A DNA stretch of 47,552 bases from Candidatus Omnitrophota bacterium (GCA_022013085.1 JAKLQX010000056.1:1-47552), one strand, 5' to 3'; positions 17,927-45,550 are shown, counted from the first letter of the stretch. Program-made: numbers and translations. The notes: a model not told the origin generated them from the letters alone.

Positions 17927-19222
17927 CTAAACGCCCTCAATTCTTATAGCTATGGATTTTTCCTTAATATCGGTTAATTTATCAATCATCTTTAAGGCGC
18001 TGCGCAGGCTTTTTTCTTTTGCCTGGTGGGTGATCATAACTACTGGGACAACCTGTGATTTTAATTTCTCTTTTTGTGTTACGGAAGCAATACTAATGCC
18101 GTATTTTGCCAAAATTCCTGATATCTTAGCTAATACACCAGGTTTATCTATTGCCATAATACGTATATAGTATTTATTTTCAAATTCATCTATTTTGCGT
18201 AAACCTTTAATTAAATTATCTTCTACCGTATTTAAGGTCGGACGGAATAGGCCAGCTTTTATATCTTGAGTAAGGTCAACTATATCAGAAACAACCGCTG
18301 AAGCAGCAGATAATTGGCCTGCTCCTGGCCCGTAAAACATAAGATCGCCTGCTAAGTCGCTGGATACATAAATAGCATTAAAAACTCCGTCTACTGAAGC
18401 CAACAGGTGTTCTTGTGGCAAGAAAGTTGGGTGTACTCGAACTTCCAGTTCATTGCCTTCTTTTTTTGCAATAGCAAGTAGCTTTATTGTGTATCCTAAC
18501 TCTTTGGCGTAATTTATATCTGCTAAGGATATATGAGATATGCCTTCAATAAATATATCCTTAAGGTTGACTATTCTTCCAAATGCTAAGTAAGTTAGTA
18601 GTACTAATTTATGCGCTGAGTCAATGCCTTGAATATCTAAGCTGGGGTCTTTTTCGGCAAAACCCTTTGCTTGCGCCGCGCTGAGGGCAGTTGAGAAGGT
18701 GCAGTTTTCATCAGACATTTGCGTAAGCACGTAGTTTGACGTGCCGTTAACAATTCCAAAGACACAACTAAATTTATTAGCTATCAAACCTTCTCTGATT
18801 GATTTTATTATCGGTATTCCCGCCCCTACTGAAGCCTCAAAGTAAATATTCTTGCCTCTTTCGGATGCTTCCGCAAATAACTCTAAGCCATGCTCAGCAA
18901 GCAAAGCTTTGTTTGCGGTAACTACATGTTTTCCCTTCTTTAAAGCGCTTAATATATAATCTTTCGCGAGGGTAGTCCCTCCCATTAATTCTACAACAAT
19001 ATCAATCGCCGGGTCGTTAAGAACTAAATTGGCATCACTGGTCAGTAAAGATTTATCTATCAAAACATCTCTTTTTTTTGTAGTATCTTTATCGCAGATT
19101 TTTTTTATAGCGATTTCAATCCCGATTTTTTGAGCAAGAAAAGCCTTTCTTTGTTGAAGGATTTTTATGACCCCACATCCTACATTACCGAAACCAATTA
19201 GGCCGATATTTATTTTCTTCAC
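17927..19222 (-). CDS. hom: Homoserine dehydrogenase
   Basis: 431 aa. GFGNVG Rossmann motif, C-terminal ACT domain. GTG start. Confidence 0.95.
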   Translation of the reverse strand: MKKINIGLIGFGNVGCGVIKILQQRKAFLAQKIGIEIAIKKICDKDTTKKRDVLIDKSLLTSDANLVLNDPAIDIVVELMGGTTLAKDYILSALKKGKHVVTANKALLAEHGLELFAEASERGKNIYFEASVGAGIPIIKSIREGLIANKFSCVFGIVNGTSNYVLTQMSDENCTFSTALSAAQAKGFAEKDPSLDIQGIDSAHKLVLLTYLAFGRIVNLKDIFIEGISHISLADINYAKELGYTIKLLAIAKKEGNELEVRVHPTFLPQEHLLASVDGVFNAIYVSSDLAGDLMFYGPGAGQLSAASAVVSDIVDLTQDIKAGLFRPTLNTVEDNLIKGLRKIDEFENKYYIRIMAIDKPGVLAKISGILAKYGISIASVTQKEKLKSQVVPVVMITHQAKEKSLRSALKMIDKLTDIKEKSIAIRIEGV

Positions 19223-19299
19223 CCCGCACCTTCTTTCTTATTTAATTTGTTAAACCGCATGGCTTTAATAGTTGAATAATTAGAAGGTGCGGGGTTCAT
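19219..19299 (-). CDS. 26-codon mini-ORF inside a palindromic cassette upstream of hom (copy A)
   Basis: ATG at 19299. Peptide is MNPAPSNYSTIKAMRFNKLNKKEGAG. Its TGA overlaps the hom GTG (GTGA). The ends of the ORF form a perfect 14-bp inverted repeat (19221..19234 and 19282..19295). Confidence 0.35.
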   Translation of the reverse strand: MNPAPSNYSTIKAMRFNKLNKKEGAG

Positions 19300-19302
19300 A
19301 AA

Positions 19303-19659
19303 TTACCCTTTCTTAAGATAATAGCTGACTGTTTCATTAATTACCTTATGGTGTTTTTCATCGACGGATAGAAAAATAAGCCTTGTATCATAAATGATAT
19401 CTTTGGTAATTTCTCTGGATTCTAAAACTCTGCTAATCAGCTTAATCGGGTTTGGATCAAAAGGTAAGCGGATCTCAAGGCCTAAGATTGTCCCGATTGG
19501 AAATTTGCAATTAGTCGTGAGTAGCATCCCACCTAAACATAAATTTTTGGTTTGGGTTATATCAGTGGTTGTGTCATTCTCTAAAATTCTATACGAAACA
19601 ATAAACCTGCCGTTTGCTCTTGGGTATTTTCTTTTCTCTAGTCCTGAGTAAGTAGCCAT
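19303..19659 (-). CDS. PilZ domain protein
   Basis: 118 aa. RKYPR (RxxxR) and NLCLGG (D/NxSxxG-like) motifs. Confidence 0.8.
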   Translation of the reverse strand: MATYSGLEKRKYPRANGRFIVSYRILENDTTTDITQTKNLCLGGMLLTTNCKFPIGTILGLEIRLPFDPNPIKLISRVLESREITKDIIYDTRLIFLSVDEKHHKVINETVSYYLKKG

Positions 19660-41079: not shown

Positions 41080-42063
41080 TTAGTTAAACTGCACGTTTAA
41101 ATAAAGATTATCTTTTGCGCCTTGCTTGTTAAGTTGGTATGCCAGCCCACTAACCATAGCTGCATTATCCATGCATAGGCTAATACTAGGGAAAAAACAT
41201 GTAATTCCGGATTCCTTAGTAGAAGCTAAAAACTTATTTCGCAAGTTACTATTAGCAGCAACCCCGCCTCCTATTAAAAGTTGTTTTACATTTTTGCGCT
41301 TACAAGCAATTAAGGCTTTTTTTATCAAAGTATTGATCACAGTTTCTTGAAAGCAAGCTGCCAGATCCTGCTTTATACAGGTATTTACTTTTTTACCTTT
41401 CAAATAATACAATACTGAAGTTTTTATCCCGCTAAAACTAAAATCCAGTTCATTTTTAGTTCCGGAGCAGGCAAATTTAATCTTATATTTGTCACCGCGC
41501 TTAGCTAACCTTTCAATTAGAGGGCCGCCAGGATAGCCAAGCCCTAATATTTTAGCTACCTTGTCAAACGCTTCTCCGCAAGCGTCATCATTAGTTTGGC
41601 CGATTACCTGGATATTAGAAAAATCCTTTATATAGAACAGGCTTGTGTGCCCTCCTGAAACCACTAAAGCTATTACCGGCAATTTAATATTATTATGGCA
41701 AAGAAAATTAGCATAAATGTGGCTATAAACATGATTAATACCTAAAAGCGGTTTTTCTAAACTTAAAGCCAAAGCTTTTGCAAAAGAAATACCGACAAAC
41801 AGTGAGCCTGGCAAGCCAGGGGTGATTGTACAAGAGATAAGATCAATTTTTTTAGGGGAGATTTTAGCCACTTTAATCGCTTCTAAGAACACGCTGGCAA
41901 TACTTTCTAGTTGCATGCGTGAGGCAATCTCTGGCACCACTCCTCCGTATTTGCTATGTAGCTTGAGGCTAGAGGCAACTATATTAGCTAAAATCTTTTT
42001 GCCATCTTTAACTAAAGCTACAGAAGTTTCATCACAAGAACTTTCTATCCCCAGAACTATCAT
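41080..42063 (-). CDS. tsaD: tRNA N6-adenosine threonylcarbamoyltransferase
   Basis: 327 aa. VLGIESSCDETS opening. HxxxH metal site (HVYSH). Confidence 0.95.
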   Translation of the reverse strand: MIVLGIESSCDETSVALVKDGKKILANIVASSLKLHSKYGGVVPEIASRMQLESIASVFLEAIKVAKISPKKIDLISCTITPGLPGSLFVGISFAKALALSLEKPLLGINHVYSHIYANFLCHNNIKLPVIALVVSGGHTSLFYIKDFSNIQVIGQTNDDACGEAFDKVAKILGLGYPGGPLIERLAKRGDKYKIKFACSGTKNELDFSFSGIKTSVLYYLKGKKVNTCIKQDLAACFQETVINTLIKKALIACKRKNVKQLLIGGGVAANSNLRNKFLASTKESGITCFFPSISLCMDNAAMVSGLAYQLNKQGAKDNLYLNVQFN

Positions 42064-44025: not shown

Positions 44026-45452
44026 TAAGATAACCTCCGCCTTATCAATTCTTGGACTGTTTTAGGATTAGCCTTGCCCGCGCTTTTCTTCATTACTTGG
44101 CCTACTAAATACATAAGTGCGTTTGTTTTTCCAGCCTTAAAATCATTTGCAGGTTTCGTATTTTCCCGGATAACCGTAAGGATAATTTGTTCAAGCTCGC
44201 AAGTCGCAGAAATCTGTAATAAATTATTTTCATTTATCAGTTCAAGCGCTGATTTTTTGGAATCAAGCATCTGGGATAAAACGCTTTTAGCAGATAGGTG
44301 CGAGATCTCTTCTCGAGCAACGAAACCAATTAAATTAATTAACTCAAGGATAACAACTCCTGTTTCGTGTAAATTAATTTTTTTAGCATGTGCCTCAGAC
44401 ATTAAAGGCCCAATTAACCAGTTAACTATATGTTTTTTATCTTTTTCCGGGTACTGCTTTAAACACTCTTCCGCAAATTCACTATCTTTTTTAGAGCTAA
44501 CTAAGATTCTTGCGTCGTATTCGGATAAAGAATAATCCATCATAAAACGTTTCAGCTTATCTTGAGGTAATTCTGGAAGTGATTCTTTTATATTATTGAT
44601 TTGGCCTTGGTCAATAATAAAGGCTGCTAGGTCCGGATCAGGAAAATACCTGTAATCCTTAGCCCCTTCTTTACTACGCATGGATATAGTCATCCCTTTT
44701 TCTGCGTCCCATAACCTAGTTTCTTGCAACATAGCGCTCCTGTTAACAAGTAGCTCAGTTTGACGAATTACCTCAAATGTCAAAGCGTCTTTTACTCCTT
44801 TAAAGGAGTTCATATTTTTAAGCTCAGTTTTGATACCAAGCTCTTTTACGCCTTCGGGCCGTAAAGAAATATTTGCATCGCAACGCAAAGACCCTTTCTC
44901 CATATCGCAATCAGAAACATCTAGATACTCAATAATACTTTTTAAGCTAGTTAAATAATCAAAGGCTTCTTGGGGGCTGGATATTTCCGGTTCGCTTACA
45001 ATTTCAAGTAGTGGAATTCCTGTACGATTAAAATCCACTAAGCTTATATTTGCCTCATGGATGAGCTTACCAGCATCTTCTTCCAAATGTACTCGGGTTA
45101 TACCAATACGTTTGGAATTTTGTCCCGTAGTAATATTCAGGAATCCATTTTTTGACAAAGGCAGGTCAAACTGTGAAATCTGATAGTTTTTTGGCAGGTC
45201 AGGATAAAAATAATTCTTGCGATCAAATTTAGTATGCTCTTGAATCTGGCAATCTAAAGCCAAAGCTACTTTAATGGCGGAGTTTAGCGCCTGTTTATTA
45301 TAAACCGGGAGTGTTCCGGGAAATCCTAGGCATACCGGGCAGCAACTAGAATTAGGGGTTTTCCCAAAATCAATAGCGCAACCACAAAATGCCTTGGTTT
45401 TAGTTTTTAGCTGTAAATGTACCTCTAGCCCTATAACAGTTTGGTATTTCAC
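44025..45452 (-). CDS. gatB: Asp/Glu-tRNA amidotransferase subunit B
   Basis: 475 aa. VIGLEVHLQL opening. GTG start. Confidence 0.96.
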   Translation of the reverse strand: MKYQTVIGLEVHLQLKTKTKAFCGCAIDFGKTPNSSCCPVCLGFPGTLPVYNKQALNSAIKVALALDCQIQEHTKFDRKNYFYPDLPKNYQISQFDLPLSKNGFLNITTGQNSKRIGITRVHLEEDAGKLIHEANISLVDFNRTGIPLLEIVSEPEISSPQEAFDYLTSLKSIIEYLDVSDCDMEKGSLRCDANISLRPEGVKELGIKTELKNMNSFKGVKDALTFEVIRQTELLVNRSAMLQETRLWDAEKGMTISMRSKEGAKDYRYFPDPDLAAFIIDQGQINNIKESLPELPQDKLKRFMMDYSLSEYDARILVSSKKDSEFAEECLKQYPEKDKKHIVNWLIGPLMSEAHAKKINLHETGVVILELINLIGFVAREEISHLSAKSVLSQMLDSKKSALELINENNLLQISATCELEQIILTVIRENTKPANDFKAGKTNALMYLVGQVMKKSAGKANPKTVQELIRRRLS

Positions 45453-45550
45453 CCCGTACCTTCTTTCGTATTCAGAATTATTCCAATATCTATGCTCTCA
45501 AACCTTAATATTTTAAAATATAATGAATAATTAGAAGGTGTGGGGTTCAT
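45449..45550 (-). CDS. 33-codon mini-ORF inside the palindromic cassette between gatA and gatB (copy B)
   Basis: The ATG overlaps the gatA TGA (ATGA). Peptide is [33 protein letters not shown]. Its TGA overlaps the gatB GTG (GTGA). Arms lie at 45451..45464 and 45533..45546. Confidence 0.35.

Follow-up and report, generated by a model that had tools for sequence, protein, structure and literature searches.

Correia or NEMIS elements of Neisseria are short MITEs with inverted repeats and a TA duplication. They are intergenic, occur in either orientation and have no known origin from a nuclease gene. The IS200/IS605 and REP/RAYT systems use HUH/Y1 transposases and make no target duplication. GIY-YIG homing endonuclease genes are free-standing or intron-borne, some of them in frame with the upstream exon, and the homing enzymes bind, by way of an added DNA-binding domain, a single long site in a single gene. 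Translational coupling by the unfolding of a hairpin at a start codon is known from MS2 coat-replicase and from ATGA/GTGA operon junctions, and a stop codon overlapping a start as GTGA is a classic arrangement for reinitiation. Split ribosome-binding sites are known in phage T4 genes 38 and 25. The SAS and ESAS sequences of Cluster K mycobacteriophages are repeats found a few bases before start codons, in one orientation, with a Shine-Dalgarno-like core and often an inverted repeat (Pope et al. 2011, PMC3203893); their origin and function were not established in that study. In the Ssn system a nuclease gene is bracketed by hairpin-forming NTS/SRM repeats, which are also scattered genome-wide in many copies, and the enzymes cleave single-stranded DNA only (Chenal et al., Nat Commun 2025, PMC11893778). 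The authors of that work noted the IS-like layout; they do not mention start codons, MITEs or target sites, and they report no mobility or duplications (PMC11893778). Our search of the literature for elements that insert into start codons found no description, the nearest being Ssn/NTS and the phage SAS.

The cassette at the hom start

The window, meaning the whole stretch of DNA analysed, comprises 47,552 nucleotides of a 1.39-Mb Omnitrophota genome (G000). On its minus strand a PilZ-domain gene is followed by hom, whose product is a homoserine dehydrogenase (Pfam Homoserine_dh 3.6e-61). The cassette between them is very probably a 73-bp non-autonomous (MITE-like) copy of a small mobile-element family with a nuclease parent, inserted in the TGAA of the hom start ATGAA and carrying a putative relay layout. 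A sequence-only reading had described a 26-codon ORF filling the spacer, with codons 2-6 as the reverse complement of its last codons, a Shine-Dalgarno-like element and the GTG start in the 3' arm, a mini-ORF stop overlapping the hom start, and a second copy in the same window. All these features are present (Table 1). The arms ACCCCGCACCTTCT and AGAAGGTGCGGGGT make a perfect 14-bp inverted repeat, and the mini-ORF TGA (19221-19219) overlaps the hom GTG (19222-19220) in a GTGA junction. When a 141-nt region was folded as RNA the stem was present (-43.1 kcal/mol, z = -5.3, none of 200 shuffles as good), and the predicted stem includes AGGTG together with the G and U of the hom GTG. The new GTG takes the exact place of the former first codon, and AGGTG precedes it by 4 nt. 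The native hom Shine-Dalgarno sequence, AAAGGG, is within the 3' end of the PilZ gene and, in the empty site of the closest genome, ends 5 nt before ATGAAG.

It had also been stated that the peptide is not a Thr/Ile-rich attenuator leader, and this agrees with what was found. The peptide has one Thr and one Ile, and the search for a terminator-like site at the cassette found none. Rfam gave no family for window positions 19209-19305. The only matches were sub-threshold ones to plant microRNA precursors (28 bits against a gathering score of 94), which a generic long hairpin typically gives.

Copy B lies between gatA (Amidase, 4e-149) and gatB (GatB_N, 5e-120). Here the earlier description needs a refinement, as the stem on the gene strand has two adjacent A.C mismatches and the fold is no better than that of shuffled sequences (z = -0.9). 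Within the window the arm motif is found 4 times, where 0.24 occurrences would be expected. The longest inverted repeat of the window is a different one, at 41859-41996, with 27-nt arms that are 78% complementary and 84 nt apart.

Table 1. Features of the two cassettes in the window and their neighbouring genes
Feature	Position	Strand	Basis or remark
PilZ-domain gene, upstream	19303..19659	-	ORF list, Pfam PilZ 4.6e-05; stop TAA 19305-19303
Orphaned original hom start ATGAA	19295..19299	-	ATG 19299-19297; closest genome, G010 (L016), without element here
26-codon mini-ORF MNPAPSNYSTIKAMRFNKLNKKEGAG	19219..19299	-	ATG 19299-19297, TGA 19221-19219
Upstream TGAA duplicate	19298-19295	-	part of the ATGAA at which the mini-ORF begins
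5' terminal inverted repeat CCCCGCACCTTCT	19282..19294	-	mini-ORF codons 2-6; anti-SD-like
Element interior, 47 nt	19235..19281	-	remnant of 5' and 3' ends of GIY-YIG nuclease ORF; alignment of all copies and 294/295-nt full-length copies
3' terminal inverted repeat AGAAGGTGCGGGG	19222..19234	-	AGGTG = new SD; last G (19222) = first base of new GTG
Downstream TGAA duplicate	19218..19221	-	TG completes GTG start; TGA = mini-ORF stop
hom, 431 aa, regenerated GTG start	17927..19222	-	Pfam; N-termini of relatives
Copy B	45448..45550	-	94-nt element 45452-45545
Copy B TGAA duplicates	45546-45549 and 45448-45451	-	
Copy B orphan ATG	45550-45548	-	overlaps gatA TGA
Copy B new gatB GTG	45452-45450	-	

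The evidence for insertion comes from empty sites. In the closest genome of the genus (G010) the hom product is identical at 426 of 432 residues, with 6% third-position differences, and hom and its flanks are 97.5% identical. The element is absent from its hom site, which reads ...TAATTT-ATGAAGAAA..., and the junction ...AAGAAAGGGTAATTT-ATGAAGAAAATAAAT (TAATTT-ATGAAGAAAATAAAT) is exactly what remains of the window sequence when the 73-nt element and one TGAA are removed. Thus, the element sits inside the original hom ATGAA start. At gatA/gatB the same genome lacks the 94 nt, and its junction aligns with the window sequence to either side of the element, the two aligned parts overlapping by 4 nt. 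A single TGAA is present at both empty sites, and no element copy was found in that genome against 46 in the source genome. The idea of a device built into hom therefore gives way to a mobile-element insertion, since the sister genome has empty sites for both window copies and the family has 46 dispersed copies.

The relatives agree with this. Across the genus the N-terminus is visible at 28 hom loci, of which 25 have a simple empty site. In all 27 relatives with the hom N-terminus the gene starts at the same codon, which is ATG in 25, a rebuilt GTG in G024 and TTG in G006. In G024 the hom start contains another variant, 50 nt long, whose arms differ and whose TGAG duplication fits the ATGAG start of that gene; judged by its sequence, it is an independent insertion into the same hom start codon. 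In G006 (L043) an unrelated spacer of about 60 nt, ending AAGAAAGGAAGGTTATT, separates PilZ from the TTG-start hom, and it could be a decayed element of the start-codon family. Contigs with occupied junctions were also found in three other metagenome runs; in one of these runs a contig skips exactly 77 nt with a 4-nt ambiguity, which is a hint only, as its short side is just 26 nt.

A family at gene starts and its nuclease-coding relative

In the 1.39-Mb genome there are 43+43 occurrences of the arm motif, compared with 1+1 of a reversed control, and the paired arms make 46 units. Most units are 73 nt long; there are further classes of 70, 76, 94 and 145 nt and some odd lengths. The terminal inverted repeats of the family are 13 nt long (CCCCGCACCTTCT / AGAAGGTGCGGGG) and give perfect arms of 13-14 bp. 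All 46 copies adjoin a gene start with a duplicated target tetranucleotide, TGAA in most, and almost all flank-oriented copies read ATGAA-element-TGAA. The frame of the rebuilt start, made of the last G and TG, opens into ORFs of 100-823 codons at 34 of the 46 copies. The remaining 12 were inspected and each of them is at a gene start too. Two of them have TTG starts and duplicate TTGA, others are nested or in tandem or have a decayed orphan start, and the short genes behind some of the 12 presumably code for ribosomal proteins L29, L36 and S6, as read from their N-termini. Among its refutations the sequence-only reading had named a common dispersed repeat with no positional relation to start codons. 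The repeat is indeed common and dispersed, but its relation to start codons is strict.

The target duplication co-varies with the local sequence, being TGAG/TGAG three times, TGAT/TGAT once and TTGA/TTGA twice. The tetranucleotide thus tracks its surroundings, which marks it as a true duplication and not a part of the element. In element variants that end GGGA it is ATG that is rebuilt and not GTG. With respect to the gene the orientation is fixed, with 36 copies forward and 5 ambiguous; turned round, 22 of 31 copies would have an open frame too. GC skew gave no obtainable signal for orientation against replication, 91% of all genes having a G-rich sense strand.

Among the 73-nt copies per-site variation is 2.6% in the repeats and 15-25% in the interior, so that the repeats are six to ten times better conserved. 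This conservation fits a requirement for the ends in mobility as well as a role of the RNA helix. Copy interiors within the source genome differ by about 24%, whereas its host DNA around hom differs by about 3% from that of G010. Either many diverged founders entered recently, or G010 has lost all its copies, or the interior mutates fast; scarless loss of a copy through slippage between the TGAA repeats is conceivable. Copy number across the genus is patchy, with 0 to 62 matches per genome to the 3'-end motif. The ATGAA-element-TGAA layout is also present in further families of the order and in MAGs that carry a Planctomycetota label.

A nested insertion is seen in contig 64 of the source genome (6272-6375), where an arms-only unit of 26 nt (TCCAGCACCTTCT + TGAAGGTGCTGGA) lies in an ATGAA inside another element. 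The TGAA is duplicated again, and this ATGAA target is not a gene start. In tandem arrays of two other genomes (G024 L086, L087, L089, L091; G021 L109) the second element lies within the GTGAA or ATGAA start rebuilt by the first, and the rebuilt start is thus itself a target.

The choice of target was examined with a crude gene model of the source genome, which has 1,280 genes, about 260 of them starting NTGAA. Roughly one in seven of these starts is occupied (about 36 of about 260). The genome contains 13,369 TGAA sites, and none of the 2,446 that fall outside the crude gene calls is occupied. Targets are used in the order TGAA, TGAG, TGAT, and starts followed by G, C or T are never occupied in this genome. 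When 36 occupied sites were compared with 208 unoccupied ATGAA starts no extended target motif appeared; the one difference was a slight enrichment of A at -7 to -5 in the occupied sites. The complete absence of intergenic copies argues that start sites may be chosen by the mechanism rather than left over by selection afterwards. We would go further only tentatively, at somewhat less than an even chance: recognition of start sites could be inherent in the movement of the element and not a matter of selection after insertion; a bare GIY-YIG nuclease with hairpin ends could be a new kind of site-directed mobile element, its nuclease gene having no start or stop of its own; and about one in seven genes of this genome with an ATGAA start could be translated by relay from a hijacked start.

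The likely parent of the family is a longer copy with the same ends. In the source genome the only nuclease copy with these repeats is a 294-nt one in contig 58, with Pfam GIY-YIG at 7e-13 and one frameshift in an A-run. Intact 295-nt copies with identical ends are found in two other genomes, in the start codon of a gene beginning VKLIFEKHKEGR (G060) and in that of a gene which, by reading, we take to be nrdR-like (G020). Each of these intact copies is read as one 100-codon ORF, MNPAPS...GIY-YIG...EGAG, which begins at the host ATG, crosses both repeats and ends at the duplication's TGA. The full-length element has neither a start nor a stop codon of its own, and between its 13-nt repeats there is nothing besides the GIY-YIG ORF. 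The nuclease consists of the catalytic domain only, its Pfam matches being GIY-YIG, T5orf172 and MUG113 and its nearest solved structures UPF0213 proteins and SLX1. No recognised transposase (DDE, HUH, serine or tyrosine) was found in the parent by Pfam. Of 111 database homologues, most of which bear the label Omnitrophota "GIY-YIG nuclease family protein", about 38 have M-x-PAP(S/P) at the start and about 50 have (E/K/G)GAG at the end. Of the long form, the 73-nt units keep some 25 nt at the 5' end and some 35 nt at the 3' end. The peptide of the mini-ORF is thus a fused stump of the N- and C-termini of the nuclease.

The source genome has two more small GIY-YIG reading frames. One, in contig 105 (4419-4640, L011), has inverted repeats of the CGTCATTCTGAG...GAAGAATC type, which resemble the published NTS/SRM; the genome thus has a classical Ssn-like unit beside the start-codon family. 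The other is in contig 99 (5856-6071, L012), directly behind a tRNA-3'-end-like sequence and in front of another tRNA-like stretch.

Expression across the element and its movement

The layout suggests how hom could still be expressed. The element went into the TGAA of the hom ATGAA, with duplication of TGAA. The old ATG with the native Shine-Dalgarno sequence now opens the 26-codon ORF, which passes through the element and stops at the downstream TGA. The last G of the element and the duplicated TG make the new GTG, with AGGTG of the 3' arm as its Shine-Dalgarno sequence. In the mRNA the paired inverted repeats may hide both of these. A ribosome coming from the orphan ATG, or one finishing PilZ 3 nt upstream (or gatA in the case of copy B), would open the 5' arm and so free AGGTG and GTG, and on terminating at GTGA it could go on to hom. 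Such a hand-over would make the insertion nearly neutral. In full-length copies the same layout would express the nuclease from the hijacked start.

Whether the hairpin is in fact melted by translation of the mini-ORF, with termination and reinitiation at GTGA, we judge from the sequence to be about an even question. The translational relay that had been proposed earlier keeps its structural basis, as the GTGA junction, the Shine-Dalgarno sequence and start in the 3' arm and the 5' arm as codons 2-6 permit it, but it clearly does not apply to every copy. The ORF is open to the TGA and ends at GTGA in 27 of the 46 copies, and in the other 19 no ORF reaches the TGA. Copies without a full frame include those in front of genes which, from their N-termini, we take to be L29 and S6. 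Lengths of 3n+1 are found in 31 of the 41 oriented copies and in every subfamily with at least three copies. The open frame could simply be inherited from the nuclease ORF. No codon periodicity was found in the interior, where variation at positions 1, 2 and 3 is 0.15, 0.125 and 0.18, so that purifying selection on the peptide is rejected. Among the stem changes 10 are compensated doubles, which may mark subfamilies, and 22 are single-sided; the latter have no G-U bias in favour of the sense RNA (5 G.U against 7 A.C on the sense strand), and these counts carry no information on selection of the stem as RNA. Together with the 19 copies lacking the frame and the absence of periodicity and of G-U bias, the interrupted stem and ordinary fold of copy B count against a strict requirement for the relay.

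It is possible, although we lean against it, that the element is mobile as described and that the mini-ORF has no role. Ribosomes would then initiate directly at the rebuilt Shine-Dalgarno sequence and GTG, before the hairpin closes in the course of transcription or when it breathes, and the hairpin would only lower expression. The 19 copies whose ORF is not open to the TGA speak for this, as do the lack of codon periodicity and of G-U bias and several copies that have no orphan ATG, keep the stem and precede probably essential genes. However, a perfect G+C-rich stem of 13-14 bp over the Shine-Dalgarno sequence and start should strongly block free initiation. Moreover, the amplified subfamilies are all 3n+1 and the 27 copies end exactly at GTGA.

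For the movement of the DNA itself we know of no single-domain GIY-YIG enzyme that transposes DNA or makes 4-bp duplications. Candidate routes would be a staggered cut, a strand-specific single-stranded DNA route as for Ssn-type nucleases, and templated repair triggered by the nuclease. Elements with symmetric ends do not usually keep to one orientation; the fixed orientation seen here could be explained either by a strand-specific single-strand route or by templated repair on TGAA microhomology. If the latter is taken as the whole process, the duplication does not come from transposition. The nuclease would break an empty TGAA start, and repair would copy an occupied site, priming and re-annealing on the TGAA microhomologies. 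We consider such templated insertion unlikely. It agrees with the orientation fixed against the asymmetric TGAA, as an oriented donor would give, with the second elements inside rebuilt GTGAA starts in G024, and with the established knowledge that GIY-YIG enzymes are nucleases and not known transposases. On the other hand, a microhomology of four bases is very little, and templated insertion alone leaves the use of TGAA only at start codons unexplained. A co-conversion tract, as a sign of homing by recombination from a diverged donor, was looked for at hom and not found, which also counts against templated insertion; the differences between the source genome and G010 are even (0-6 per 50 nt) and do not rise at the junction.

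Two further explanations of the hom cassette fare worse. If the hairpin were extruded, the native Shine-Dalgarno sequence could serve the GTG across the base of the stem as a split ribosome-binding site, or an initiating ribosome could move from the orphan AUG to the adjoining GUG. By geometry only, the stem sets AUGAA beside GUGAA, and the native Shine-Dalgarno sequence would be about 10-12 nt from GUG if the stem is skipped; but the G and U of GUG are paired within the stem, and the 295-nt full-length copies have the same ends and yet their ORF must be read through, so that this is very improbable. A regulatory leader evolved by the host for hom or amino-acid operons, sensing via the peptide, has next to no probability: it would suit a leader-sized ORF before a gene of the threonine/methionine pathway, but 46 copies lie before unrelated genes, 25 of the 28 hom loci of the genus including that of the sister genome have no element, the peptide has no regulatory codons, and neither a terminator nor an Rfam family was found, and with these copies, empty sites and absent signals a hom-specific leader or attenuator is ruled out.

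Comparison with known systems

If the reading as a mobile element with a relay layout holds, a mobile element would be able to insert harmlessly into compact genomes, choosing the only spot at which its own end can stand in for the start codon and ribosome-binding site that it destroys. For the expression of its own gene it would rely on the host start. In Omnitrophota dozens of GTG starts and "hypothetical proteins" of 26-33 codons would then be footprints of the element, and the "GIY-YIG nuclease family proteins" of 100 amino acids beginning MNPAPS would be products of host start codons fused to it. For the recently described Ssn-type nucleases with a single GIY-YIG domain this would be a link to actual mobility. 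In addition, the affected genes would form a natural series in which a short ORF precedes a start closed off in a defined hairpin.

The cassette differs from amino-acid leader attenuators in having no regulatory codons and no terminator-like site and in lying before unrelated genes. As in MS2-type coupling, the downstream start is in a helix whose other strand is in the upstream frame, and a stop overlaps the start; the difference is that a mobile element brings this arrangement along complete and has placed it before dozens of genes. SAS and ESAS resemble the family in their place before start codons, their single orientation, their Shine-Dalgarno-like core and the frequent inverted repeat, and are set apart by the target duplication, the empty sites, the orphan start codon and the linked nuclease of the present family. 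With homing genes it shares a selfish nuclease ORF that uses host expression signals and leaves the host gene functional, but its enzyme is a bare catalytic domain and its targets are dozens of unrelated genes that have only (A)TGAA at the start in common. The hairpin ends, tetranucleotide targets, strand-specific and oriented insertion and small non-autonomous palindromic derivatives are those of IS200/IS605 and REP/RAYT, whereas the co-varying duplication and the GIY-YIG nuclease are unlike IS200/IS605.

The features of a MITE are all present, namely inverted repeats, a co-varying target duplication, dispersed copies with empty orthologous sites and a longer coding relative with the same ends, although unlike the usual MITE parent this relative encodes no recognised transposase. 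Like Correia/NEMIS, the elements are short and numerous, make a duplication, are co-transcribed with their neighbours and supply expression signals; unlike them, they target start codons in one orientation and rebuild the Shine-Dalgarno sequence and start. The likeness to Ssn is in the single-domain GIY-YIG protein of about 94-100 amino acids and in repeats that both bracket the gene and are dispersed. The arms of the start-codon family (CCCCGCACCTTCT) are however unrelated to the NTS/SRM consensus (CGTCATTCCC...GGGAATC type). In the present family both repeats belong to a single unit as its ends, this unit has a target duplication and empty sites, copies are confined to start codons, and the ORF borrows the host ATG and stops at the duplicated TGA. 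We see in the family an inverted-repeat mobile element, a kind already known, whose enzyme and target logic are new; the cassette in the window is a typical member.
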